Source of the DNA: an uncultured Caldisericales bacterium
Lineage (GTDB): Bacteria > Caldisericota > Caldisericia > JAAYUI01
Length of the DNA: 64,000 nucleotides
Assembly: GCA_964613055.1 (NCBI GenBank)
Contig: CAZTGD010000005.1
Coordinates: 11,555-75,554, forward strand
Reading direction: 5' to 3'
The notes below the pieces were generated by a model. That model searched no databases, had not been told where the DNA came from, and saw nothing but the letters and a program-made list of their open reading frames with translations. Below, piece after piece: positions 4,515 to 24,240 of this stretch; positions within the stretch are counted from its first letter, which is position 1; every line of letters starts with the position of its first letter. A program made the translations under genes and the position numbers.

Positions 4515-5528
4515 TTGGAGGACAATATGAGAAGAATTGGAGTCGTTACATCTGGGGCTGACTGCCCAGGTCTCAATGCCGCGATAAGGGCGGTAGCAAG
4601 AAAGGGTTTTGAGCTTGGATATGAAGTAATCGGTGTCAGGAATGGTTGGAAAGGATTGATAGAGGATGATGTCTATGTCATGCATAAAAGGCATGTTTCA
4701 GGCATACTGTTTCTTGGTGGTACTATCCTCGGTTCCGGTAGATTCGATCCTTTTAGCTCTGAAAAGGAGTTTGGGCGTTTTCAGAAAAACTTCAACAAGT
4801 ATTCACTGACATCACTCGTTGTAATCGGTGGATTCACATCCTTGAGGATTGCTTCAAGATTGAATGAAGCAGGTTATGCTTCTGTGGGTGTACCTTCTAC
4901 CATAGATAACGATGTTGCGTGTACAGAATCGTGCATCGGTTTTGATACGGCATGTAATTTTGTATCGCATTCCCTTGACCGATTGCATGCCACTGCATCC
5001 TCTCATCACCGAGTCATGGTCGTAGAAGTGATGGGAGGTGGTTCTGGCTGGATAGCCTTGATGGGTGGTTTGGCTGGTGGAGCAGATTATATCGTAACCC
5101 CTGAAAGACACACCTCCTTCAATGACATTGTAAATCATATTGAGCACAGAAGATCATCGGGAAAGAACTTTTCTATCATTGTTATAACTGACACTGCTCA
5201 GGTTGATGGAATGCCATTCAAACCAGGTGACACCCCACAGACTGGTGTTGGTGCAACACTTGCCAACGAGATAGAAAAGCGTGCAGGTATAGACTCCCGC
5301 TATACCGTTCTAGGTCATCTTCAACGAGGTGGAACACCTTCTGTAGTGGATAGGGTGCTGGCAACAAGATTCGGTTATGAAGCAGTAGAACTCTTGAAAA
5401 GGGGAGAAGTTGGTAAAATGACTGCCATTAAGGCAGGCCTTGTAGTTCCAGCCGACATGGATATAGCAACAAGAGAGCGAAGACGTCCACCAGCAAAACT
5501 GTTTGAGTACGCTCAGTTATTTTACTAA
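4515..5528 (+). CDS. pfkA: 6-phosphofructokinase family protein with atypical active-site motifs
   Basis: TSGADCPGLN, GGTILGSGR, TIDND and LGHLQRGG are present, but GGD(G/D) reads GGFT and MGR reads MGG. Confidence 0.85.
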   Translation: MEDNMRRIGVVTSGADCPGLNAAIRAVARKGFELGYEVIGVRNGWKGLIEDDVYVMHKRHVSGILFLGGTILGSGRFDPFSSEKEFGRFQKNFNKYSLTSLVVIGGFTSLRIASRLNEAGYASVGVPSTIDNDVACTESCIGFDTACNFVSHSLDRLHATASSHHRVMVVEVMGGGSGWIALMGGLAGGADYIVTPERHTSFNDIVNHIEHRRSSGKNFSIIVITDTAQVDGMPFKPGDTPQTGVGATLANEIEKRAGIDSRYTVLGHLQRGGTPSVVDRVLATRFGYEAVELLKRGEVGKMTAIKAGLVVPADMDIATRERRRPPAKLFEYAQLFY

Positions 5529-5802: not shown

Positions 5803-8800
5803 ATGCCAATTAAAGATAACATTCGCATAGACTCTAGATTCTCGCTGAAGTATCTGCTTGGAAGTGGTGGAATGGGAAGAGTGTATCTTGCCACTGATTC
5901 AGAGAATGGTAACGACGTAGCGATAAAGTTCCTATCTGCAGATAACCAGAATGCAAACAAGAGGTTTTCTCGTGAGATTGAAACACTATCTGAAATAAAT
6001 CATAAATCTGTAGTTCAATACATATGTAGTGGTTCAACCGATGATGGATACTGGTATGCAATGGATCATATCCCAGGACCAAATATAACAGATTGGTTCA
6101 GATCAAAAGGAATACTCGATTATCCATTACTTTCTGAAACGATGAGTCATATTGCCTCTGCTCTTTCTGTTGTTCATGAGAAGGGTGTTGTTCATCGTGA
6201 TGTAAAACCAGATAACATACTGATGAATGGTGATCTGCCCGTGCTGGTCGACTTCGGGATCGTGCATCTTCAATCTTCAACCCAATCAACCAAACTCACT
6301 CACGAAGGCTCTATTGTAGGTACAGCCATGTACATGTCCCCTGAGCAAGTAATGGGAGGTATTATTGATGGTCGATCTGATCTCTACTCACTGGGCACTA
6401 TTCTCTATGAAATCCTCACTTCTTGTCACCCTTTCCCAGCTGAAAATTTTCCTAGATTAGTGTCAAAAATATTACGAGAAAGACCGACAAGGCCATCCGC
6501 ACATAATCCTGGTATTCCCAAAGCACTTGAGCAAATAACCGTTAGGCTGTTGGAGAAAAACCCGGATCTGAGATATGACTCAGCCGAACAACTGGTGGAG
6601 TCATTGAACAGATTTATTCATGGAGGAGAGGTATCTAAATCAAAAAACCAATCACCCATGAAGGCTTATGAAACAAAGACTATTCCTTTTGTCGGTAGAA
6701 CTGATCAACTTGAAAAACTTAAGACTTTGTTTGATTCGGCGACTATTGGTAATGGCGGATTAGCGGTTATTACTGGAGAATCCGGATTAGGCAAATCAAG
6801 ACTTTTATCCGAGTATAAGATGATGGTCTTGGGGGGTTTTGGAAGATTCCTTGAATGCCAGAAAGCCGGTGATAGTTCCGTAAGACCTGCTATTTCGTCA
6901 GTGCTTAATCAACTTGCTGACTATGAAATTGCGTATAACCCCGACTTCATAAAAAAACATTCACACATGATTCGAAGCCTGTCACCCAAATTTGCAAATG
7001 CCATAGGGATCGTGAGTAACCCGCCCAATATCTCAGATGATGATATGATCCCAAAGGTTATTGCTCAGATACTATGTGAGTCATTTCCAGAGATACCAGT
7101 GGTTATTGCATTTGAAGATAGGTTAGACAACATAACAGAGAAAATTATTCATGAGTGTGCAAGAAAATCGATCGATTCAAAAGTGATAGTGTGCTGTCAA
7201 TCTGAGGCAGATATCCCAGAGTTTCTCAATGGTATAAAGAGAGTTAGTCATATTGAATTACAACCGTTTGATGTTGATGATATTAATCAATTAGCAAAAA
7301 GCATAATAGGGAGAGATCTAACAACTGGAGAGGGTGAGAAGATCATCAAAACCTCGGGAGGTAAACCCGGTATAGCAATACATCTTATCTCAAGCATAAA
7401 ACCTTTTGATGAAACGATATCTCTGACGTCTGTACCCGAATATAGTCATCTATTGAACCAAAGGGTTGATGAATTAAGCAATTCTGCAAGGGAAATAATT
7501 TCAACACTCTCCCTATTTGACAAACCTATTCCACTTTCAATATTAAAACCAATATCTCGTCTTAAGAGCACAAATTTTCAAAAAGCGTTTGATTCTCTTG
7601 AAAGTGGCAATATGATCCAAGTATCAAATAAGGGGTTTGAACTATTTTGTAATATTATTTCAAAGGATGTAAGGGATTTTGTATATAATTCATTAACTGA
7701 AGAAAGATTTAGGGAATTAAATCAACTAATTGCCAGCACACTTTCTATCTATTACTCAAACAGTGATGATCCAGATGTTCTTGCAATGATTGGCAAACAC
7801 TATCATCTGGCTAAAAAGCAGGATGAGTATTGTAAGCATCTTGTTAAAGCTCTGGAGCAATTAGAACAAATCGACTACCTTTCCAGTGGTTTTCATTATG
7901 TTGAGAAACTTCAGGAACACATAGATGTTGTGGATAATACTTCAATACATAAGGTGCTTCAGTGGATTATTAAAGCGAAATCTAAAACAGGTGATCTGAC
8001 AAGTTTTGAGGAATGGGTGGATCGTTCAAATCAGATAATAATCAATCGTTCAATTGATGATGTTAGAAAATCAAAGCTTTTTCTTAACATCACTGAGGGA
8101 TACACACAGTTCATGAATCATCATAAAGCTGTAGTCTATATGCAAAAGGCTTATAAAAACAAGTACCTTTTTGACAATCGTACAAAACTACATCTGGAGA
8201 TCATGCAGGCTAGAATTTATATGTTGCAGTTAGATCTCGATAAAATGAGCATGGCAATCGGTGAGATTGAGCGACTCATCAATTTAATTGATGATGATGC
8301 GATGTTGCTAGATAAAATCCAGTTCTTCAGTATTAAAGGTATTTACCTCTTTGAAAAAGGTAATAGTGGAGAGTCAATTCGCGCGTTTAAAAAAGCCCTT
8401 CAGATATCAAAGGATATAAATCACAGAGAGAATATGCTTAGGGTTATGACTAATCTCGGGAATGCATATCATCGAGAGAGTGAATTTGACAAATCTCTTT
8501 ATTACAGAAATCAAGCCTATGAAATTGCAAAGGATATGGGGATAACTCAAATCCAAATCAAACTCATTTCTGCTTTGCTCGCAACATACACAAAGATTGG
8601 TGATGTAGACAGGTTGAGAAAGAAGATGATTGATTTTAAAGCTGTTCTGGATACAGTCCCGTTCAGCAATTATCATATTGGTTGGACAAGTCACTACACA
8701 CAACTGGTTTGTCTCGAGGAAAGGTTTGAGGATGCCAGTGAAGTAATACAACGTTACAAAAGGGAAACGATTGAAAAGAATCAACCTCACTTGCTCAGAG

Positions 8801-9596: not shown

Positions 9597-9714
9597 TTAC
9601 TTCTGTCTTAGAGTTCGAATATGTTTACGGACGACTGTGCCGTCAGCTCTTACGTATTCATCGACTATAACTAGCTCCAAATTCAGTGATTTTAGATCAA
9701 GTTGTTTTGCTCAT
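9597..9714 (-). pseudogene. small ORF with one extra base after codon 3 (restored: MSKQLDLKSLNLELVIVDEYVRADGTVVRKHIRTLRQK)
   Basis: SD AGGAGGAGG 8 nt before ATG 9714. Frame 0 stops after 5 codons; the +1 frame is open to TAA at 9597. The span is 118 nt, i.e. 39 codons plus 1. Confidence 0.45.
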
Positions 9715-9839: not shown

Positions 9840-12800
9840 TTACTGTTTCAAAGAGTCTTCAACAATCTGTATTTCTTCTGGTGTAAGCTCATAGAGTTCA
9901 TATACCAAATCATCAATCATTTTATCTGTCATTTCTATTTGTCTGTTTAACAGGTCTTTTTCATGTGAAGTCTTTGTTTTAGCAAGTTGTTTGTTTAGCT
10001 CAAGCATAGTTTCTACAAGTTGCACAATTTTGTCGTGTTTTTTCTTTTCGTTTGGGCTTTTGAGGTCGAGGATTTTGATTGGGATACTTTTAAGATACGT
10101 TGTCTTGTAAATATAATACCCTCCGGCTTTTGGGACTGTAGATTTTTTATAATAAAACTCAACAAGCTTAGAATTTAGGACACCTAAAACAAAAGGCATC
10201 GAGTAAACTTCTGAAGGTTTTAAAATAATCCCACATGTCGTATCTCCATACAGACAACCATCTTCAGCAACAGAGAATCTATTACAATCTGCCATCTCTG
10301 GTACGACAATCTTTTTTCCTGAGATTACATCAAATTTTCTTGGACACCACAATTCATACCATTTCTTTTTTGATTTTTTAAAATATTCTCTTCCATCAAG
10401 ATCTTTTCTTCTGGCTGACAAATAATTGTAAATATTTTTATATCCTTGTAGTTCTTCTTCAGATAAAAAAATTGTTTTATCATCAGAAAACTTGTATGGG
10501 TAAATAATGTGATCTTCTACATCACCAATATGGTATCTCTGAATATTTTTTCCTCTCAACTGTGGAAATATAATTGATTCTTCTAGCAACTTATCTCTTA
10601 TTTCTTGTTTTGAGATGACAAAAACTGAATTGTTCCCAGAAACAATACCCTCAGAAATTGCCTTTGTAATAACATCAAGTTTTATGGAATTCTTTCTCAT
10701 TTTTTCAAGTAACTCATTATGCTTTTTCGGTCTAATCACCCAAACATCAGATGAAAGGGAATTTTGATTTCCATGGATAGACCTTGAGTTTAGGCTTCTC
10801 ACTCTGTAGTTGAATTTTAGATTAGAATCAATTGTTTTACATTTTTGAAAGATAAAAATTCCAGTATAATTTGTTGCACCTTTGAAAACTTGAACATCTT
10901 CGAAATCACATATACTTTCAATCTGAACATTTTCTAAAAGATATTTTCTTATATCTTTTCCATGTGTCCGTTTCATAAAATTTGTTGGACAAATAAAACC
11001 GAACTCCCCATCATTATCCAGAAGGTCTACCGATCTTTCAATAAATGGAATATACAGATCAAATCTACCTTTTGCAGACTTATACACAAGTGTTAGGTGT
11101 TTTTTTACATCTTTAAATCCATGAAAACCTAAATACGGTGGATTACCAATCACAGCGTCAAAACCATAACCTTTTTCAAGCTCTCGAGAGGGAGATTCCA
11201 AATCAAGTTTGGAATGACGTGAGTTTTTCCATTTGATGATTTTTGGAAACTCTTTATCCCAATCAAAAGCATTGATTTTTCTCAAATGATCTAAATCATT
11301 TCTCTTGACAGGGTTTAGATCGTAGAAATCACTTTCAATAAGGCTGTTACCACACTTGATGTTTTCACCGAGGTCGGGTAATGCTCTTTTCATTCCTAGG
11401 TCTGGGCTGTTTTCCTCTTCCAGCACTTTTAATAAAAGGTTTAGCTTTGCCACTTCCACCGCTTGTGTGTCTATGTCTACGCCATAGATATTATTCAAAA
11501 GAATTTCTTTTTTCTTTTCGGTTGAGAGTCTCCAACCGCCTTTTATTTCATAGATTGGTTGATTCTTTTTCTTTGCATATTTTTCTGGATCATTATTACT
11601 GTAGTAGTCAAGATGCCAGTCAATAAGATGTTGGAATGCTCCGAGTAAAAATGAACCTGAACCACAAGCTGGGTCAAGAATCTTTAATTTTGAGGCTTGT
11701 TTTGGTGTTTTCCCTTCAAGCAATTTACCAACAGTGTTGCTAACGATGTAATCAACAATGTATTTTGGCGTATAATAAACACCTCCAGCTTTCCTAACCT
11801 CTGGTTTTTCCTCAATTGTTGCTTGATGTGAATCATCTAATGTGATTACCCTTCCCAAAAATTTTTCATAGACATGACCAAGAATATCCACAGGTAGTAT
11901 TGAAAAATCGAAATTATAATATGGAGGGTAAAGATTATCGATTATCTCTTTTAGAACCGTGTCGTCAATTTTAATATTTTTTGAGTAATTATCAAAATCT
12001 GGTCTTCCATCCTCTTTTTTAAAATGAAACAAGCCTGAGTTATATTTTGTATCAGCATGATCGTAGATAGCTATGAGTTTCGAGTAAACATTTTTACCCT
12101 TCATAGCTTCATCAAGTTTAAACTCTTTTCTATTCTCAATCCCTCTATCTTCAGCAATTCTCAGGAACAGGATTCTATCAATAGTTCTTTGTACAACACT
12201 GTTTAGAAGGTAAACATCAAGACCTTTGTTTTTAAGTGCAATGTTTGTTGCTAGTTTTTCTCTCCAACCTTCTATCATTTTCAAAAGTGTTTCATCAACA
12301 GGTTCTCTTTTCCCTTTGACTAGGTGCTGATAGTCATCAAGTAATTTATCCAAAGAACCTCTCGCTACATTCTCACGTCCTAGATAGCCTTCAATCTCAT
12401 CCCATTTTTTTATGTAATCCTCAAAGTGGTATTTCCTTAATAATCCAACATGCGGTCTATCTGACTTATCTTTTGGCTGAACACGTACATCATATAAACT
12501 GAGATACTCAAAATTTGATAAGATCGAAACGTATATCGTATCATTGTTCCACCCATAACGTCTAAGCTGATATGCAGAATCTTTATCATCTAAAATATTT
12601 ACTGATGGCTTTTTTGTTTCAAGAAAAAAAGCTGGAGCTCCGCCAATTCTGAACAAATAATCGGGTTTTTTTGTCCCAGAACCTTGCATACGCTGGCTAT
12701 ACTGCTGTTCAACATCTCTGTATCTCTCAGGTTTTCCATCCTTATTTGAAATATCCCAACCAAGTGCTTCAAACAAAGGATCAATAAAATCTGTACAAAG

Positions 12801-12890
12801 TGATGTTTCTTTATAACTGGTTTCTTTGTAAGTATCGATGTAGTTTCTAAATGTAGCGACACGTTCAACAACAGTCTTTGGTATGCTCAT
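9840..12890 (-). CDS. Type IIG restriction-modification enzyme (nuclease + N6-adenine MTase + TaqI-like TRD)
   Basis: N-terminal PDY...LETK (PD-(D/E)xK), GGVYYTP, motif I DPACGSGSFL, motif IV GNPPY, C-terminal specificity region. Confidence 0.92.
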   Translation of the reverse strand: MSIPKTVVERVATFRNYIDTYKETSYKETSLCTDFIDPLFEALGWDISNKDGKPERYRDVEQQYSQRMQGSGTKKPDYLFRIGGAPAFFLETKKPSVNILDDKDSAYQLRRYGWNNDTIYVSILSNFEYLSLYDVRVQPKDKSDRPHVGLLRKYHFEDYIKKWDEIEGYLGRENVARGSLDKLLDDYQHLVKGKREPVDETLLKMIEGWREKLATNIALKNKGLDVYLLNSVVQRTIDRILFLRIAEDRGIENRKEFKLDEAMKGKNVYSKLIAIYDHADTKYNSGLFHFKKEDGRPDFDNYSKNIKIDDTVLKEIIDNLYPPYYNFDFSILPVDILGHVYEKFLGRVITLDDSHQATIEEKPEVRKAGGVYYTPKYIVDYIVSNTVGKLLEGKTPKQASKLKILDPACGSGSFLLGAFQHLIDWHLDYYSNNDPEKYAKKKNQPIYEIKGGWRLSTEKKKEILLNNIYGVDIDTQAVEVAKLNLLLKVLEEENSPDLGMKRALPDLGENIKCGNSLIESDFYDLNPVKRNDLDHLRKINAFDWDKEFPKIIKWKNSRHSKLDLESPSRELEKGYGFDAVIGNPPYLGFHGFKDVKKHLTLVYKSAKGRFDLYIPFIERSVDLLDNDGEFGFICPTNFMKRTHGKDIRKYLLENVQIESICDFEDVQVFKGATNYTGIFIFQKCKTIDSNLKFNYRVRSLNSRSIHGNQNSLSSDVWVIRPKKHNELLEKMRKNSIKLDVITKAISEGIVSGNNSVFVISKQEIRDKLLEESIIFPQLRGKNIQRYHIGDVEDHIIYPYKFSDDKTIFLSEEELQGYKNIYNYLSARRKDLDGREYFKKSKKKWYELWCPRKFDVISGKKIVVPEMADCNRFSVAEDGCLYGDTTCGIILKPSEVYSMPFVLGVLNSKLVEFYYKKSTVPKAGGYYIYKTTYLKSIPIKILDLKSPNEKKKHDKIVQLVETMLELNKQLAKTKTSHEKDLLNRQIEMTDKMIDDLVYELYELTPEEIQIVEDSLKQ

Positions 12891-12996: not shown

Positions 12997-13539
12997 TCAC
13001 GCACACACCATCCTCTTCAGCATATCACCAAAGATGAAAGCAGGTTTCCTTACAGGGGTTTTCTTTGACTTGGCTCTTGGTTTGTTGCCGTGGTGTTCAT
13101 TATCCTTTTTTGGCTGTCCACCGACATAGGCTTCATCCATTTCAACAATACCCCTTAAAAGGCTTTTATCAGGTTCAAGTAATGCTTTTCTAATCTGAAC
13201 CGATATTCTGTAGCCTGTCTTAACAGTAACACCGATATCCCTTGAAAGTTGACGGCTAGATATAGACTTCTTTGCGTTGGCAATAAGGAATATAGCCATA
13301 AACCATTTGGGTAAAGGTAAACGAGTGTGATGAAACATCGTTTTAGTAAGTACCGTGAATGACTTATGACAGTCCTTACACTGCCAACGTTTGGTGGTTC
13401 TTGAAGGGTCGTGATGTGTTGTTGTGGAATAAGAACCGCAATAAGGACAGTAGACACCCTTTGCAAACCTTATTGCTTCAAGCTTTTCTACACATTTTTC
13501 GTGTGTCCCGAATTGGTTTGTTATGTCTAATAAGTTCAT
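12997..13539 (-). pseudogene. IS1595-family transposase with internal deletion
   Basis: Zn ribbon CPYC...QCKDC, HTH (SSRQLSRDIGVT..T.YR), VEMDEAYVGG and KTPV, then directly a C-terminal-like tail. The remaining DDE residues are absent. Confidence 0.85.
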
Positions 13540-13545
13540 AACTAT

Positions 13546-13573
13546 ATATTAGCAGGTTTTGTTGAGTTGTCAA
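13546..13573 (-). promoter_or_regulatory. transposase promoter, probably leaderless transcript
   Basis: Minus strand TTGACA-N16-TAATAT; the ATG is 6 nt after the -10 box and there is no SD. Confidence 0.55.
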
Positions 13574-13611
13574 GTCCTTAGAGGGAACAATATTGTGAAG
13601 ATGCTGCTAAC

Positions 13612-13639
13612 TTGATATTCATATTATCGATGTTATTAT
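13612..13639 (+). promoter_or_regulatory. candidate promoter of the leader/ABC/selD operon
   Basis: TTGATA-N16-TATTAT with TGn extended -10. Confidence 0.45.
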
Positions 13640-13664
13640 GTTTGTCAGTATGAAGGAGGACCAA

Positions 13665-13766
13665 GTGTCTAAACAGAGATCACTTTGAGCTTGTAGAGAC
13701 GGGCAGTTAGCCTGTCAGGTTCAGGTGATCTACCGCTTCAAGCCGATCACCTGAGAATTCAAATAG
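13665..13766 (+). CDS. putative selenocysteine-containing leader peptide MSKQRSL-U-ACRDGQLACQVQVIYRFKPIT-U-EFK
   Basis: SD AAGGAGG at 13653-13659, GTG at 13665, in-frame TGA at 13686 and 13752, TAG at 13764. SECIS-like hairpin loops start 16 nt after each TGA. Confidence 0.6.
13698..13716 (+). promoter_or_regulatory. bacterial SECIS-like hairpin of leader UGA1
   Basis: Stem GACGGGC/GCCTGTC, loop AGTTA with G at position 2, loop 16 nt after the UGA. A lower stem 13686-13692/13717-13723 can include the UGA. Confidence 0.6.
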
Positions 13767-13779
13767 ACTTAGGAGGTCT
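13765..13779 (+). promoter_or_regulatory. SD-sequestering hairpin, possible second SECIS
   Basis: AGACTT-AGG-AGGTCT contains the AGGAGG SD of the gene at 13783. Its loop begins 16 nt after UGA2. Confidence 0.5.
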
Positions 13780-13782
13780 GAT

Positions 13783-14937
13783 ATGAAGCGATTTGTTGTG
13801 TTTACTCTTTTAGTTGTGTTGTCTTTTGGGTTGTTTGTCTCGTGTGGTGGAGAAGCTACAACTGATAATTCTAATAATGATTTGAATGAACAACTGCCGT
13901 TACTGAAGGTAGGTCACGTTAACCAGGATCATCACCTTGCTCTCTATGTTGCGGCATTGAAGGGTGATTTCTTTAAAAAAGACGGCGTCTGGATGACTGA
14001 GATTAAACCCAAGGAAAGATACACCCTGCACACCAATGATGGTCCGATTGCTGAGATTCAGTTGATTGTAACCAAGGGCGGAGCTGAGATGCCAAACAAC
14101 CTGTTGGCTGGACTGTTTGATATTGGTTTTGGTGGTCTTCCTGCAGTAATGGGTGTTGTCGACAAAGGCAAGGATGTTCGTGTCTTGATGCCACTTCAAA
14201 ATGAAGGAGATCAGTTGATCGTTGAAAAAGAGATGCCCGTTGAAAACTGGGATGAATTTGTTGAATACGTCAAGAACTCCGATGAACAAATTGTTTTAGG
14301 CTACAAAGCACCTACTGCCGTGCAGTATATAATTGCGCAAAAAGCATTCTCTGAAGTAGGCATATCATACACAGAAGATCCAACTGATACTGAAGCAATG
14401 GTTTTATGGGTTAACCAAAAGGGTCAGAAGAATATGACTTCGAACCTAGCCGCTGGCCAGATTGACGGTTTTGTGGCAAACCAACCCACTCCAGCTCAAG
14501 CAATCATATCAGATGTAGGCAAATTCATCACAGAGTTAACCGTCTTACCGCCCGAAGGTATGTGGGCACAACACCCATGTTGTGTGGTCTGCAGTAACGA
14601 GAGGGTAAAGACAGAGCACCCAGAAGCGGTAAAACAGTTTCTCAAGCTCATCATGCTTGCCACTGATCATATCAATGATGATATGAATGATGCCATTAAT
14701 ACTGCTTATGAATTCCTTGGACAAAAAGAGGGTGTTGAAGATCTGTCAATTCCAACCGTTTCTTTCAGTAATGAAGACGACGAAATCTGGAGAGGTGGAT
14801 TGGTTACCTGGGTTAATGTCATGAATGAGATAGGCAAGTACAGTGGAGACCTAATGGGTGTAAACGATGAAACCGCTGTTGATATGTGTGTTGACTTCAC
14901 ATTTCTGGAAGAGCTTAAAAAGGAGCTTGGAAAATAG
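13783..14937 (+). CDS. NitT/TauT-family ABC transporter substrate-binding lipoprotein
   Basis: Lipobox FVSC, AGLFDIGFGG, IDGFVANQP and HPCC motifs; SD AGGAGG. Confidence 0.9.
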   Translation: MKRFVVFTLLVVLSFGLFVSCGGEATTDNSNNDLNEQLPLLKVGHVNQDHHLALYVAALKGDFFKKDGVWMTEIKPKERYTLHTNDGPIAEIQLIVTKGGAEMPNNLLAGLFDIGFGGLPAVMGVVDKGKDVRVLMPLQNEGDQLIVEKEMPVENWDEFVEYVKNSDEQIVLGYKAPTAVQYIIAQKAFSEVGISYTEDPTDTEAMVLWVNQKGQKNMTSNLAAGQIDGFVANQPTPAQAIISDVGKFITELTVLPPEGMWAQHPCCVVCSNERVKTEHPEAVKQFLKLIMLATDHINDDMNDAINTAYEFLGQKEGVEDLSIPTVSFSNEDDEIWRGGLVTWVNVMNEIGKYSGDLMGVNDETAVDMCVDFTFLEELKKELGK

Positions 14938-15779
14938 ACAGGGAAAGACTTAAAACAATCATATGGAGTATTGCAGGTGCGATAATCTTACCTGCAATAC
15001 TCTTCCTTGTGTGGGATTATTCAGCAATGAGGATGGGATCATCGACACTTCTTCCAAGGGTTGGCGATGTATTCGATGTATTGATTCATCCAACACGTGA
15101 TCTTATCAGACAAGGATCCCTTCTGTATCATGTGTATATCTCTTCGATTCGTGTTCTAACTGGTTTTCTAATAGGTTCCCTCCTTGCGGTAATAATCGGT
15201 ATGATGATGGGCATGTGGGAAAGAGTAAGGGATTTTATCACTCCGTTTATTGAACTAATGAGACCACTTTGCCCAGTAGCTTGGATACCATTCGCTATCA
15301 TCATCTTTGGTGGTTCGACACTATCGAATGTCTTTGGTTATAGATTCACTGAGAGCATACTAGACTACATACAGACTGCTCAGTTGTTCATAATTGCTTG
15401 GGGTGCTTTCTTTCCCGTATTGATAAACACCATTGATGGCGTAATGGGTGTTAGAAAAATATGGATTGAAACAGCAAAAACAATGAGTGCCGCACCTCAC
15501 CAGATATGGGCAAAGGTGATACTGCCGGGAAGCTTCCCAAGGATTTTAACTGGGCTGAAGGTAGGACTTGGCATCTCATGGATGGTAGTTATAGCTGCAG
15601 AGATGTTCCCAGGACCTCCAGGTGGTATTGGATACTTGATGATGGAGGCGTATGCCCAAACTGAAATACACATCCTTGCGGCAGGATTGATAGCCGTTGG
15701 ATTGGTGGGTGCATTGCTCAATGGTATCCTAAGTGCAATATACCGCATTTTTGCTAACTGGCAGGCAAAGGAGCGCTGA
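14934..15779 (+). CDS. NitT/TauT-family ABC permease (probable ATA start at 14934; first conventional start GTG 15009)
   Basis: RPLCPVAW, EAA-like ETAKTMSA, PGSFPRILTGLKVGLG.SW.VVIAAE. The frame is open upstream of 15009 and encodes a plausible N-terminal TM helix. Confidence 0.88.
   Translation: MDRERLKTIIWSIAGAIILPAILFLVWDYSAMRMGSSTLLPRVGDVFDVLIHPTRDLIRQGSLLYHVYISSIRVLTGFLIGSLLAVIIGMMMGMWERVRDFITPFIELMRPLCPVAWIPFAIIIFGGSTLSNVFGYRFTESILDYIQTAQLFIIAWGAFFPVLINTIDGVMGVRKIWIETAKTMSAAPHQIWAKVILPGSFPRILTGLKVGLGISWMVVIAAEMFPGPPGGIGYLMMEAYAQTEIHILAAGLIAVGLVGALLNGILSAIYRIFANWQAKER
14966..15002. repeat. perfect 13-bp inverted repeat just after the SBP stop codon
   Basis: GAGTATTGCAGGT-N11-ACCTGCAATACTC; no U-tract. 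Confidence 0.75.
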
Positions 15780-15781
15780 TT

Positions 15782-16573
15782 ATGGTAAAGATAAGTGGTG
15801 TATTCAAGCGTTTCGACGAAACCGAGGTGCTGAAGAATATTAACCTCAAGTTTCTACCTGGTGAGTTCAATTGTCTACTCGGTCCAACTGGATGTGGGAA
15901 AACCACTCTTTTGAGGATTATTGCAGGGTTGCTCAAACCTGATCTGGGTGTTGTAAAGATTGATAAACCGACAATATCAATGATCTTTCAACAGCAAACG
16001 CTATTCCCGTGGAGGAATGCACTTTCAAATGTGTGTCTTCCTCTCGAGTTTATGGGCTATCCAAAGAAAGAGCGAATTGAGATGGCCTACAGACGGCTAG
16101 AAGAGGTAGGGATGGTTGACCAAGCCAGAAAGAAAGTATTCCATTTATCTGGTGGTATGCAACAGCGTGTACAGATAGCAAGAGCGTTGGTATCAAACCC
16201 GAGTGTCTTGCTTGCTGATGAACCCTTCGGAGCGCTCGATGAAAAAACAAGATATAACCTCCAACGTCAGATTCGAGATGTCGCAACTCGCAACAATATG
16301 AGTGTGATCTTTGTTACTCACAACGTCTCTGAGGCTATTTATCTTGGTGATCGCATCGTTGTCATCGGTAACCATCGGGTGAAAGCAGACTATGACCTCA
16401 CGGAACCACACCCAAGAAACAGAATCTCAGAGTGGTTTTCTGATCGAATTATTGAAGTTCGACAAGTGTTTGAGAACCTGATCATCTCGAATGAAGCAAA
16501 TGATGAAATTGAGAATGTAGAAAGAGATGATTTTAAGACAGTTAAAATGGATGTGCAAAATGAAGATGAATAA
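15782..16573 (+). CDS. NitT/TauT-family ABC ATP-binding protein
   Basis: Walker A GPTGCGKTT, signature LSGGMQQR, Walker B LLADEPFGALD, H-loop VTH. Confidence 0.95.
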   Translation: MVKISGVFKRFDETEVLKNINLKFLPGEFNCLLGPTGCGKTTLLRIIAGLLKPDLGVVKIDKPTISMIFQQQTLFPWRNALSNVCLPLEFMGYPKKERIEMAYRRLEEVGMVDQARKKVFHLSGGMQQRVQIARALVSNPSVLLADEPFGALDEKTRYNLQRQIRDVATRNNMSVIFVTHNVSEAIYLGDRIVVIGNHRVKADYDLTEPHPRNRISEWFSDRIIEVRQVFENLIISNEANDEIENVERDDFKTVKMDVQNEDE

Positions 16574-17600
16574 AGAGGAGGAGTTCCGACTGACAAAGTT
16601 TGCCGGTTGTGCTGGTTGAGAAAGCAAGTGGGGGCCGGGTGCTCTCAAAGAACTCCTTCGTGATCTACCCAGATTTGATTCTAAGGATTTGATAACACGC
16701 GATGTCACAAAAGCAGATGCTGTTGTATTCAGGTTGGACAAAGATCGATATGGCATCTACTCAGTCGATGTATTCTCACCAATAGTCGAAGACCCAGAGT
16801 CATTTGGCAGAGTAGTCTTTGCCAACAGTATTTCTGACATATGTGCAATGGGCGGTAAACCTTTGGTTGCTTTGAACGTGTGTATGTTTCCCCTTCAGGT
16901 ACCCGTTGACAAACTGAATAGCATACTCCTCGGTGCATCAAAGGCCGCAATTGAGAATGGTGTGTTCATCGCTGGTGGTCACACCACAAAGAATGACGAG
17001 CTGCATTATGGGTTGTCTGTGTTTGGCGAATGCAAACCGGAAAATCTGAGAATGGCGAATAATGCTCGGGATGGTGATCACATAATCCTTACAAAAGCAA
17101 TAGGTACGGGCATCATGTTTGCCGCTAAAGACAAGGTGGATAGTTTGGAATGGGACAGTGCAGTGCAATCCATGATGCAAACGTCTATCAAAGCATCAGA
17201 AATTTTGACCCACTTTGGATGCCGATGTAGCACTGATATAACGGGTTTTGGTCTTGTCCCACACCTGTTTGAGGTGTTGGAGGAATCAAAGCTTTCAGCG
17301 GATATCATTCCAGAGAATATACCTTTACTGCCAGGTGTTTTTGACTTGGCTAATATATATCTCTGCCCTGTTCTATCTGATAACATGGGATTGGTAGGTA
17401 ACAATTTCATTGCAGGTGATTCAGACCCGAGGTGGATGAATATCTGTTTTGATGCGCAGACCTCAGGAGGTTTACTCGCTTTTCTCTCGCCGGACAAATC
17501 AGATGAGTGTGTCATAGAGCTTAAAAAGGCAGGATATCCTGCAAGTGTAATTGGAAGTGTGTCAAAAGGCAAACCTCAAGTTAGATTGGTTACAAAATAA
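16566..17600 (+). CDS. selD: selenide, water dikinase; itself a selenoprotein (Sec at codon 18)
   Basis: ATG 16566 gives MNKEEEFRLTKFAGCAG-U(TGA 16617)-ESKWGP, in frame with the 16689 ORF. SelD motifs ANSISDICAMGG, GGHT, TDITGFGL and DAQTSGGLL are present. Confidence 0.93.
16630..16646 (+). promoter_or_regulatory. bacterial SECIS element of selD
   Basis: Stem GGGGGC/GCTCTC, loop CGGGT with G at position 2, loop 16 nt after the UGA. Confidence 0.7.
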
Positions 17601-17916: not shown

Positions 17917-19455
<1,539 letters not shown>

Positions 19456-22420: not shown

Positions 22421-22726
22421 ATGATAATTGGTAAAGTGCTTAAACTCATAAAAACCGGGAAATTCAGAACGATGATGGATATTCAAAAAGAGCTTCGTCT
22501 AACGACTGATGAGCTTAAAGGGATACTTGATATTCTTGTGGTAACAGGAAAACTGAAGAAAACTGATAGTAATAGTATTCCTAAAAAGAACTACCCGTCA
22601 TGTTCGATGTGTAAGCAGAATTCAGCGTGTTTGAGTTATTCTGAATGTAAAGTCATCTCGGTATCACAGAGTGGTAACGTTTCAAATGGAGCAACTTTCT
22701 ATCAGCCTATAGGAAAGCCGGTATGA
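22421..22726 (+). CDS. FeoC-like winged-helix protein with Cys cluster
   Basis: wHTH-like N-terminus plus CSMC...C....C; lies directly after feoB. Confidence 0.65.
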   Translation: MIIGKVLKLIKTGKFRTMMDIQKELRLTTDELKGILDILVVTGKLKKTDSNSIPKKNYPSCSMCKQNSACLSYSECKVISVSQSGNVSNGATFYQPIGKPV

Positions 22727-22853: not shown

Positions 22854-23762
22854 ATGAATACTGCGATACATTATAACTGCAAAATAGTTGCGATAATAAC
22901 TCTACTCTTTACTGTGGTTGGTTTATCGGGACTCACTTTATCCGTTTCTGCTCATAACCCTGGAGCTAAACCCGTCCCAGAGTTTGAGCTTGAAGCCATT
23001 CAGATAAGGGATGGTGGCAAACTAACCGAACTCACCCCTAAGATACTGGGTAAGTATCACAATGAAAGGTCTATGGAGTCAACACGTGAAAGGTTCGTTA
23101 GTCAGGGTATGACTAAAAGCGAGATAGAGAAGACAATCGATGCTCAGTATGGTGGAGCAACAGGCATAGGTCCCTGTGGATTGGGTGTCTACAGAGCTGT
23201 GCTATACGCATCTGATATTCTCTGGGATGATGGAATAATCAATCGATCTGAGCTCTGCGTAGAAAACAATTGGAACGGTGGTGGTTCAAGAGACTACAGT
23301 CTGTATATGACAGGCACTTCCGATGATGTACCTGGTGTAACTGAGTCTGGAAAATTCACTTTCGTCAGCAATAATGCAATTATCCCCATTGATATAGATT
23401 ACCCTCAGATAAAAAAACTCTCCAAAGATATTGGAATAGGCTCAATGAGTTACATTATTTCTAACTTATCGACAGGTGAGAGCGTTGAACTCAGCTTGTC
23501 CGCTGATATCATACCGTTGAATTACTTTGAAAACAGAAGGGTTGTGAAGTTTACTCAGAACCCAGATAAACAGATAGTTGACGAATTCAATGTTCAATGG
23601 GAACAGATTCGAGATAATCTGCTTTTGCTAAACGACTATGAGTTATTTAATGAAGTTGATGAACCACCACCCGAAGTGCCAGTGATCCCAATAATAGTTT
23701 TAGGTGGTTTGCTATTGATAATACTCATCATGTGGCTTGTCAGCAAATACAGGCGTTTCTAG
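22854..23762 (+). CDS. exported, C-terminally membrane-anchored protein (weak FmdE-like similarity)
   Basis: Signal peptide, PCGLGVYRA..A...W segment, Pro linker, TM helix and basic tail. Confidence 0.55.
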   Translation: MNTAIHYNCKIVAIITLLFTVVGLSGLTLSVSAHNPGAKPVPEFELEAIQIRDGGKLTELTPKILGKYHNERSMESTRERFVSQGMTKSEIEKTIDAQYGGATGIGPCGLGVYRAVLYASDILWDDGIINRSELCVENNWNGGGSRDYSLYMTGTSDDVPGVTESGKFTFVSNNAIIPIDIDYPQIKKLSKDIGIGSMSYIISNLSTGESVELSLSADIIPLNYFENRRVVKFTQNPDKQIVDEFNVQWEQIRDNLLLLNDYELFNEVDEPPPEVPVIPIIVLGGLLLIILIMWLVSKYRRF

Positions 23763-23973: not shown

Positions 23974-24240
23974 ATGAAACCGGGTGATCTGATAGAATTT
24001 ATTAAGGAAAAGAGATTCACAACAATATCAGAAGCATCCGTTGTTTTGGGAGTAGAACCTGATTATATCAGAAAAATTATTGATAAACTGAGGATAAAGC
24101 GTCACCTGAGACGACTGGACATGTCAAGGGGGTCTGGTTGTGATTCGGGAGATTGTACAGGATGCAAGGGTTGTTCAACCGCTTTTGCAATACAAGAAGA
24201 CGGAACGCCGATTGTTTATGTCCTTTCACCGTTTATTTGA
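23974..24240 (+). CDS. second FeoC-like wHTH protein
   Basis: HTH followed by GCDSGDCTGCKGC. Confidence 0.65.
   Translation: MKPGDLIEFIKEKRFTTISEASVVLGVEPDYIRKIIDKLRIKRHLRRLDMSRGSGCDSGDCTGCKGCSTAFAIQEDGTPIVYVLSPFI

Follow-up and report, generated by a model that had tools for sequence, protein, structure and literature searches.

The leader that precedes a selenium-linked ABC transporter and selD operon in an uncultured Caldisericales bacterium is proposed here to regulate translation as a ribosome-dependent attenuator like those of ermC and cat, with the decoding of a UGA codon programmed by a selenocysteine insertion sequence (SECIS) as its sensing event; judged from sequence, the probability of this reading is put at about 60%. 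The leader lies in a stretch of 64,000 nucleotides (referred to below as the window; GenBank assembly GCA_964613055.1, contig CAZTGD010000005.1, positions 11,555 to 75,554 of the forward strand) and is considered a strong candidate for a switch responding to the decoding of selenocysteine (Sec), which would be the first one known from nature. To our knowledge, the means by which bacteria sense their selenium or Sec status are largely unknown, and the E. coli selAB operator is the sole established example at the RNA level. A first-pass annotation of this DNA, which had pointed out the leader, knew of no described example of such a sensor, and no description of a UGA-SECIS leader of this kind was found in the searchable literature.

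An interval of 10 nt separates the −10 box of a promoter-like element (Table 1) from the first in-frame ATG, and from this predicted promoter the transcript would begin at about the first AUG, a few bases before the leader open reading frame (ORF). ATG 13650 is the likelier first start, since it is in frame and lies ∼10 nt past the −10-like box; the start chosen in the first-pass annotation, GTG 13665, does have an internal Shine-Dalgarno (SD) sequence before it (AAGGAGG, 13653-13659) and may serve as a second one. The ORF ends in CUU-UGA(13686)-G, and this first UGA (UGA1, 13686-13688) directly follows MSKQRSL. Beyond it the frame stays open for 21 codons (ACRDGQLACQVQVIYRFKPIT) to a second UGA (stop 2, 13752-13754), which is followed by EFK-UAG; a read-through peptide would have 34 residues. 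The positions previously given for the SD, GTG, MSKQRSL, both UGA codons, EFK-UAG and the hairpin behind UGA1 (H1) agree base for base with those found here. Four segments of the leader can pair with one another. Region 1 extends from the last leader codons through UGA1 to the fourth nucleotide past it and pairs with region 2 in a helix (P1) whose two strands flank H1 (arms GACGGGC, 13698-13704, and GCCUGUC, 13710-13716; loop AGUUA, 13705-13709). Region 2 can instead form an alternative hairpin with region 3 (H2; 10-11 bp, 13720-13730/13745-13755), whose 3′ arm contains stop 2. Region 3 has, in turn, an alternative partner in region 4 (P4): the loop segment of H2, CGCUUCA (13734-13740), complements UGAAGCG (13784-13790), and the 3′ arm of H2, GAUCACCUGAG (13745-13755), can pair either with region 2 or with CUUAGGAGGUC (13768-13778). 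Region 4 also contains a local hairpin (H3, AGACUU-AGG-AGGUCU, 13765-13779) that encloses the SD of the first operon gene (SD2, AGGAGG, 13771-13776); the start codon of that gene (AUG2) is at 13783. Burial of SD2 in this hairpin had been noted before and H3 does contain it, but folding predictions suggest that the dominant sequestration of SD2 and AUG2 is by long-range pairing with the loop and 3′ arm of H2. The minimum free energy of 13640-13800 is −50.7 kcal/mol (z = −2.98), and none of 200 dinucleotide shuffles was equally stable.

Table 1. Positions of the leader elements and of the operon genes in the window.
Feature	Position	Strand	Remarks
Promoter-like element	13612..13639	+	TTGATA, 16-nt spacer, TATTAT, TG upstream; 10/12 matches
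Leader ORF to UGA1	13650..13688	+	ATG 13650 (MKEDQVSKQRSL) or GTG 13665 (MSKQRSL)
Region 1	13677..13692	+	5′ strand of P1 ("SECIS lower stem"); pairs with 13717-13731
H1, SECIS-type upper hairpin	13698..13716	+	7 bp, loop AGUUA
Region 2	13717..13731	+	3′ strand of P1 or 5′ arm of H2 (13720-13730); alternative pairing, covariation
Region 3, anti-SD/anti-AUG	13734..13755	+	H2 loop segment plus H2 3′ arm
Stop 2 (UGA)	13752..13754	+	Ends read-through frame, 21 codons past UGA1
Region 4	13765..13790	+	H3 hairpin, SD2, AUG2 with first codons
Substrate-binding protein gene, lipoprotein-type	13783..14937	+	NMT1_2 / SsuA-TauA-NitT class
ABC permease gene	15009..15779	+	Best NCBIfam similarity SaoP, below cut-off
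ABC ATPase gene	15782..16573	+	Best NCBIfam similarity SaoA, below cut-off
selD (selenide, water dikinase)	16560..17600	+	Sec UGA 16617-16619, SECIS hairpin 16629-16647

Nine distinct leaders, designated clade 1, precede orthologous genes for the substrate-binding protein (SBP) in Caldisericia metagenome-assembled genomes (MAGs) and two more distant metagenomic lineages. With W for the copy in the window and L001 to L021 for the loci of relatives, the set comprises W/L004 (near-identical), L007, L001/L013, L002, L003 (= L005), L006/L011, and L008 (= L009, L010). The SBPs are 70-98% identical to that of the window in Caldisericia (70-76% in three of the MAGs), 51-55% in L006/L011 and 52% in L008-L010. 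In all nine leaders a 5′-proximal AUG or GUG is in frame with UGA1 and no stop intervenes, and in six Caldisericia leaders a second, SD-preceded start is likewise in frame. A −10-like box is found 6-13 nt before each of the nine starts (by eye, 6-10 nt in L006, L011, and L008), and L001, L007, and L003 have equivalent promoter hexamers with the same spacing to the start. The sequence CUUUGA, encoding [R/K/G]-[S/L]-L-UGA, is invariant, and every copy has an H1 with an RGUU(N) loop. These observations, together with the covariation and SD sequestration described below, bear out the conservation upstream of orthologous SBP genes that the first-pass annotation had put forward as a check on the short upstream ORF (uORF), its UGA and the hairpin at a fixed distance. 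What follows UGA1 is less constant. The read-through frame has exactly 21 codons in each of six Caldisericia leaders, although L003 contains indels, which compensate one another, and its stop is UGA in five of them and UAA at the same position in L003; the frame ends in UAG after 11 codons in L006/L011 and in UAA after 8 codons in L008. UGA2 had been interpreted as a second, SECIS-equipped Sec codon, which is untenable because of the UAA in L003 and the differently placed stops of the distant relatives. The hairpin at "+16" behind it is just that of the SD, and its distance from stop 2 is variable (25-31 nt between stop 2 and AUG2), so that the spacing is a coincidence of the window sequence.

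A more distant SBP clade (clade 2) contains 509 proteins, including those of LCP-89, WOR-3, Hatepunaea, and Stahlbacteria, and a homologous form of the leader precedes distant orthologues in LCP-89 and Hatepunaea-type bacteria. L012 and L017 share the core AAUCCAYYUGAGG, a hairpin whose loop starts at +20 with G at 21, and then CAGGUGGAUU, to which GAUCACUUUGAG ... CAGGUGAUC correspond in the window; L018 and L021 have analogous leaders with a UGA and a hairpin. The leader ATG of L021 overlaps the selD stop codon as ATGA, its ORF reads MKLSNLTWINSGGKL-UGA, and at 4740-4830 a hairpin (GGACC-AGUUC-GGUCC) is followed by a 24-bp perfect inverted repeat enclosing ∼90 nt before the SBP gene. The leaders of L012 (1395-1760), L017 (4649-5002), and L018 (4655-5002) lie 215-340 nt upstream of the SBP start. 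The spacer in L012 and L017 is C-rich and G-poor, with an anti-SD-like CCUCCUC run in L012, and clade-2 spacers of this kind could point to Rho-dependent or long-range control instead of a compact switch. No leader was found directly upstream of the SBP gene in relatives with 35-38% SBP identity (L014-L016) or in WOR-3 (L019/L020). All 13 sequences from both clades have a short ORF of 4-15 codons with its start or starts in frame, which may be translated from near the mRNA 5′ end; a promoter-like element lies 10-13 nt upstream. The stop of this ORF is UGA in every case, TGA being the rarest stop in these genomes (∼20% of long-ORF stops).

H1 resembles a bacterial SECIS element in several respects. 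It is a stem-loop directly 3′ of an in-frame UGA and has a small apical loop with G at position 2, in keeping with the published consensus of a small loop with G at position 1 or 2 (PMC1088965, PMC13582414). Its loop begins 16 nt from UGA1, the G and the U after it being nucleotides 21 and 22 from the U of UGA1. The spacing would suit the SelB of the host itself, for the selD SECIS of the same genome has a 7-bp stem (+13..+19/+25..+31) and a 5-nt loop (CGGGU, +20..+24) of identical geometry, a likeness that had been seen in the first-pass annotation and holds. Counted from the U of UGA1, the first stem nucleotide is +12 in the window and between +12 and +14 throughout clade 1, and the conserved hairpin has 6-8 bp. 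Across the 13 leaders the apical loops are AGUUA, AGUUU, GGUUC, AGUU, AGUUUG, GGACUU, GGAUC, and AGUUC, in which the G is invariant and the following UU at least 90% conserved. Hairpins of this type are rare: when both strands of the window were scanned for a perfect 7-bp stem with no more than one G-U pair and a start between +12 and +14, closed by a loop of 4-5 nt with G at position 2, two of 3121 TGAs had one, of which UGA1 was one and the other, at 23087, was out of frame inside an ORF, a chance rate of about 1 in 3000 TGAs. Apart from selD, no further selenoprotein gene or copy of the motif was detected in the window; the candidates at 23087 and 44705 were discarded as extra Sec sites, being out of frame or antisense to long ORFs. 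A TGA on the + strand of L021 (613) is followed by CGGCCU-GGUUC-AGGUCG, with its loop at +20 and identical to that of H1 in L001/L002, but this hairpin is antisense to an LplA-like gene and probably arose by chance. The leader itself has no known Rfam family (window at gathering thresholds; 13400-13900 at E ≤ 10; also L008, L011, L012, and L014). In E. coli fdhF the UGA is located in the lower stem of the SECIS, and in the predicted fold P1 and H1 together look like a full element of this kind, with a lower stem containing the UGA, an upper stem and a G-containing loop.

The alternative pairings were assessed in an alignment of seven Caldisericia leaders, with 500 shuffles and slid structures as controls. 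For P1 + H1 + P4, 91.5% of cells are paired and the covariation score is 0.284, compared with 0.20 in shuffles (none of the 500 reaches it) and at most 0.11 in the slid controls; for H1 + H2 + H3 the values are 94.6% and 0.399, compared with 0.22 (again 0/500) and above all slid controls. Compensatory changes are found at four of seven pairs of H1, in which 98% of cells are paired, and at four of 11 pairs of H2, and P4 is 92-99% paired over its two helices in the seven sequences. Columns 39, 84, and 107 covary three ways (A-U-A vs G-C-G), so that column 84 in region 2 tracks both column 39 in region 1 and column 107 in region 3, as predicted for a strand shared by alternative helices. In L006, L011, and L008 equivalent helices are built from unrelated sequence (for example, UUUUUUGAGG:CCUCAAAAAA for P1 and CAUGAGGCC:GGCUUCAUG for P4). 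The competition between a UGA-containing lower stem and the hairpin around UGA2, suggested earlier for the window, is hence found with covariation in orthologous loci. As modelled, the leader has the layout of ermC, pairings 1:2 and 3:4 being exclusive with 2:3 and the SD and AUG lying in segment 4. Accessibility was expressed as the predicted cost of making the 19-nt SD2-AUG2 window single-stranded, and an occupying ribosome was represented by masking its footprint with UGA1 in the A site. The cost is 11-16 kcal/mol for the free RNA in seven of nine leaders and falls to 4-7 kcal/mol in all leaders when the footprint is masked; the drop, 3.9-9.4 kcal/mol in seven of the nine, was matched by 0-5 of 150 dinucleotide shuffles.

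The operon behind the leader, and its counterparts elsewhere, supply the link with selenium. The in-frame UGA of selD and its flank (AGCAG-U-ESKWGPGAL) are kept in W, L001, L002, L004, L007, and L013, a conservation that implies the Sec trait in the host. Since selD (MKMNK...) starts at ATG 16560, before the ATPase gene has reached its stop codon at 16571-16573, its translation is probably coupled to that of the transporter genes and thereby to the leader. The SBP has a lipoprotein signal (...LFVSCGG) and a P-C-C motif (P265 C266 C267, HPCCMVCS). All of 11 homologues, with identities as low as 35%, retain this motif, which recalls the CC motifs pointed out in SaoX and SaoB by Haft and Gwadz (bioRxiv 10.1101/2022.07.06.499078). 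In L014 the SBP cassette is situated between selB-selA, which are divergent from it, and a gene for a SelD-CMD fusion, directly after which comes tRNA-Sec (9603-9695; Rfam, 76 bits); by its gene content this locus is a complete sel island built around the SBP transporter. The cassette precedes selD-TusA-YedE in L015, lies between selD and selA-selB in L019/L020 (WOR-3), directly follows selD in L021, and is near selA in L008. A selenium linkage of the operon family in several phyla is thus supported by neighbouring selA, selB, selD, tRNA-Sec, YedE, and TusA genes, and SBP, permease and ATPase constitute a candidate family of ABC importers for selenium compounds, related to Sao at similarities below the cut-offs. 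In the L003 locus (6934-8064), from an anaerobic membrane bioreactor (AnMBR) Caldisericia MAG, a 376-aa protein without a Pfam match replaces selD after the ATPase gene; this is also the leader in which stop 2 is UAA.

It is proposed that in the free RNA the last leader codons and UGA1 (region 1) would pair with region 2 and, together with H1, form a SECIS-like stem-loop, leaving region 3 free to pair with SD2 and AUG2, the OFF state. A ribosome with UGA1 in its A site would melt the lower stem while H1 stayed in place at the mRNA entry site, just as happens during translation of selenoprotein messages; since P1 and H1 resemble a full SECIS, release of region 2 would be the same melting step as occurs on any such message. 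The freed region 2 would then capture region 3 in H2, and region 4 would be held by its weak local hairpin alone, the ON state. Because occupancy of UGA1 is predicted to open the transporter SD in most leaders, dwell time at this codon is taken to be the variable that is read, and the UGA, the hairpin of SECIS geometry and the gene context suggest that it would be set by competition between release factor 2 (RF2) and SelB-GTP-Sec-tRNA(Sec) bound at H1, which would determine both how long region 1 is covered and how often ribosomes pass on to stop 2. Sec-decoding capacity would in this way govern translation of the selenium-linked importer and, by coupling, of selD. Translation of the leader, binding of SelB to H1 and insertion of Sec are steps that we infer. 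A translational pause at UGA that depends on SelB and the SECIS was reportedly observed by Suppmann and colleagues in 1999. For the clade of the window there is a slight lean towards activation when Sec-tRNA is available, since in Caldisericia the anti-SD strand contains stop 2, and the SD is predicted to become accessible both through a SelB-dependent pause and through read-through to this codon, the cost with a read-through ribosome being 2-8.6 kcal/mol. Negative feedback, with slow termination in the absence of Sec-tRNA and quick passage in its presence, is possible. The first-pass annotation had cautioned that the direction of regulation could not be read from the sequence, and this holds, the predicted effect of read-through differing between clades. 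In its widest form the proposal, which we favour by a small measure, is that of a natural attenuator for the 21st amino acid, in which the SECIS lower stem doubles as segment 1:2 and the fate of the ribosome at UGA1 (release by RF2, or a SelB pause and Sec insertion) sets translation of importer and selD; the device would be ancient, common to Caldisericota and candidate phyla of the FCB group (LCP-89, Hatepunaea, and probably Stahlbacteria, L021), and rewired by lineage in the places of stop 2 and perhaps through Rho-type spacers.

Several points weigh against a Sec-sensing attenuator. The genes selA, selB, and selC are absent from the 64-kb window (selA and selB as searched by tblastn with the L014 proteins, for which a SelA fragment in L008 was the sole match), and a search of 13400-13900 at E ≤ 10 gave no match to the Rfam bacterial SECIS families, which represent just some bacterial SECIS types. 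The loops of H1 (RGUUN) and of selD in the same genomes (CGGGU or CGGGA) are not alike and so define no SelB determinant. A ribosome at UGA1 has no predicted effect in L002 and L008. No single direction fits all leaders either, for read-through opens the SD in Caldisericia, whereas in L006/L011 the ribosome would end its read-through on region 2, with closure of the SD (16 kcal/mol), and in L008 it would disrupt H2 and make the SD less accessible (8.6 vs 4.7). The outgroup leaders (L006, L011, and L008) lack an SD, so that leaderless initiation must be assumed for them, and the comparison comprises just ∼7 independent clade-1 lineages and four clade-2 sequences. Conservation of the UGA could be explained in part by its pairing in P1. 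The case is a computational one.

The partial pairing of the UGA, which could explain its conservation, would also suit a selenium-independent leader, in which UGA1 is an ordinary stop, H1 a spacer, and the uORF provides constitutive coupling or senses translation or RF2 in general; the switch between 1:2/3:4 and 2:3 would work with any ribosome pause. Such a leader is nevertheless fairly unlikely, as UGA is invariant though the rarest stop while stop 2 drifts, the geometry equals that of the selD SECIS, the loop G is invariant and the UU after it nearly so, no other conserved leader codon is available for sensing, and all copies of the element accompany one transporter family, whose genes occur in sel neighbourhoods. 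The conserved H1 loop, which no conserved protein constrains, and the missing SDs of the outgroup would equally suit a protein operator, where SelB with or without Sec-tRNA, or another regulator, binds H1 and stabilizes P1/H1 and hence P4, leader translation being incidental; in E. coli, according to the summary in PMC13449736, the SelB quaternary complex represses selAB by way of a SECIS-like hairpin in the 5′ untranslated region (UTR). This is unlikely in view of the in-frame start, the stop-free frame and the UGA at a fixed distance kept in 13/13 sequences, the two in-frame starts of the Caldisericia leaders and the ATGA overlap with selD in L021; H1 is ∼65-75 nt from SD2, unlike the adjacent selAB hairpin, and the model offers no reason for region 1 to match the footprint left by a ribosome positioned at UGA1.

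A transcriptional read-out, in which a ribosome at or passing through UGA1 controls Rho-dependent or intrinsic termination in a tnaC-like manner, might apply especially to clade 2, given its 215-340 nt between leader and SBP gene and the C-rich, G-poor spacers of L012 and L017, although Rho sites are not reliably predictable. Weak terminator-like hairpins (H1 3′ arm/region 2) followed by U-rich tracts occur in L008, L007, and L003, and in Treponema primitia transcription of fdhF past its UGA depends on selenium (PMC3892789). A transcriptional read-out is nevertheless highly unlikely: there is no terminator-like site at 13300-14000 of the window, where the covarying anti-SD pairing accounts for the conserved downstream sequence. 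The possibility raised in the first-pass annotation of a stand-alone selenoprotein, of about 22-35 aa with U-x-C or CC motifs and the peptide as its product, is barely credible. The frame is open for 8-38 codons past UGA1 in all sequences, has the constant 21-codon length noted above in six Caldisericia leaders, and includes a CC dipeptide in four of these six; however, it does not run into a conserved protein, the peptide after the UGA is conserved in neither sequence nor length, the leader peptides have no NCBIfam match, the "CC" codons belong to the part of the H2 loop that is the pairing partner of AUG2, and substitutions track base-pairing, not amino-acid similarity. An exchange of UGA for Cys codons, sought on the suggestion of the same annotation, was absent, none of the 13 sequences having UGC or UGU at UGA1. 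Other readings were tried and rejected. A prfB-like +1 frameshift at CUU-UGA would, by eye, lead into frames that end after 4 to ∼20 codons in unrelated places; a T-box-like sensor of tRNA-Sec, prompted by GGUGG in region 2, has neither an Rfam T-box match nor a Stem I architecture; and a minus-strand terminator formed by H1 is seen in L001 alone and is not conserved.

The surroundings of the operon are of mixed character. The leader promoter is bordered by a truncated IS1595-family transposase gene (12997-13539, − strand, 180 aa), the product of which retains a zinc ribbon and, of the DDE domain, just the first part. The upstream neighbour in L013 is a kinase/AAA_16-TPR gene, and the upstream sequence of L001 is near-identical to that of L013 by eye; the genes at this place thus differ among relatives, and the leader marks the exact point at which synteny is lost. 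Further upstream, 9840-12890 (−) encodes a 1016-aa adenine methyltransferase of the Eco57I/MmeI-type fused restriction-modification or BREX PglX-like kind (HSDR_N, N6_Mtase, Eco57I, and TaqI_C domains). A 16S rRNA gene (17919-19455, −) is convergent with selD and there is no 23S or 5S gene in the window, from which the rRNA genes appear to be unlinked in the host genome. The segment 20133-24240 contains an ORF for a FeoB-like GTPase/permease (756 aa) followed by two small ORFs (22421-22726 and 23974-24240) that by eye are Cys-rich and winged-helix-like.

Should the attenuator reading prove true, classical attenuation would extend to a recoded stop codon and the Sec machinery would have a regulatory, non-coding use. 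The leader would offer a compact natural sensor of Sec-tRNA/SelB activity that could be useful in selenoprotein engineering, an uncharacterised ABC importer family with an invariant P-C-C motif would be marked as part of selenium metabolism, and annotators would have reason to keep tiny UGA-terminated uORFs beside sel genes.

Among known systems, ermC, cat, and cmlA attenuation is closest in layout, with a short ORF, segments 1:2 and 3:4 (SD/AUG in segment 4) alternating with 2:3, and a ribosome held on segment 1 that frees the downstream SD. In those systems the ribosome is held by a drug-dependent arrest peptide, whereas here the stall site would be a UGA with a SECIS-type hairpin between segments 1 and 2, Sec decoding would be the presumed signal, and control would be exerted on a transporter and on selD. 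With the trpL and hisL leader peptides the leader shares the principle that decoding of a codon reports charged-tRNA supply through alternative RNA structures; these control an intrinsic terminator, which is lacking at 13300-14000 (weak candidates occur only in L003, L007, and L008), whereas the target here would be an SD, and the sensing codon would, unlike theirs, be a recoded stop, dependent on a hairpin in cis and on an elongation factor of its own, for which a release factor competes. In tnaC and prfB, as proposed here, the decision is made by a ribosome with UGA in its A site, and CUU-UGA is also the prfB shift site. The leader differs from both in its peptide of 4-15 residues with a loosely conserved end ([R/K/G]-[S/L]-L in clade 1) and in having a SECIS-type hairpin, and from prfB in that, by eye, no +1 frame is conserved.

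Closest in pathway is the 5′UTR of E. coli selAB, in which (Thanbichler and Bock 2002, as summarised in PMC13449736) a SECIS-like hairpin likewise precedes a selenium-pathway operon and is thought to report the level of SelB-GTP-Sec-tRNA to translation initiation. The selAB hairpin is part of untranslated RNA without a UGA and, at 3 nt from the SD, blocks initiation directly; H1, by contrast, is preceded by an ORF and follows its UGA, is ∼65-75 nt from SD2 (55 nt upstream of it in the window), and would act through alternative pairings. In Treponema primitia, decoding or failure at the Sec UGA of fdhF(Sec) also controls downstream expression, the UGA being within the structural gene and the effect one of transcription-translation uncoupling (PMC3892789), whereas the leader described here is a dedicated one, separate from the genes it would regulate. 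According to the authors of that paper, an attenuator for a rare amino acid had until then been engineered synthetically and not seen in nature (PMC3892789). Taken with these comparisons, the leader is classified as a case of ribosome-mediated attenuation with a sensing event that would be new.

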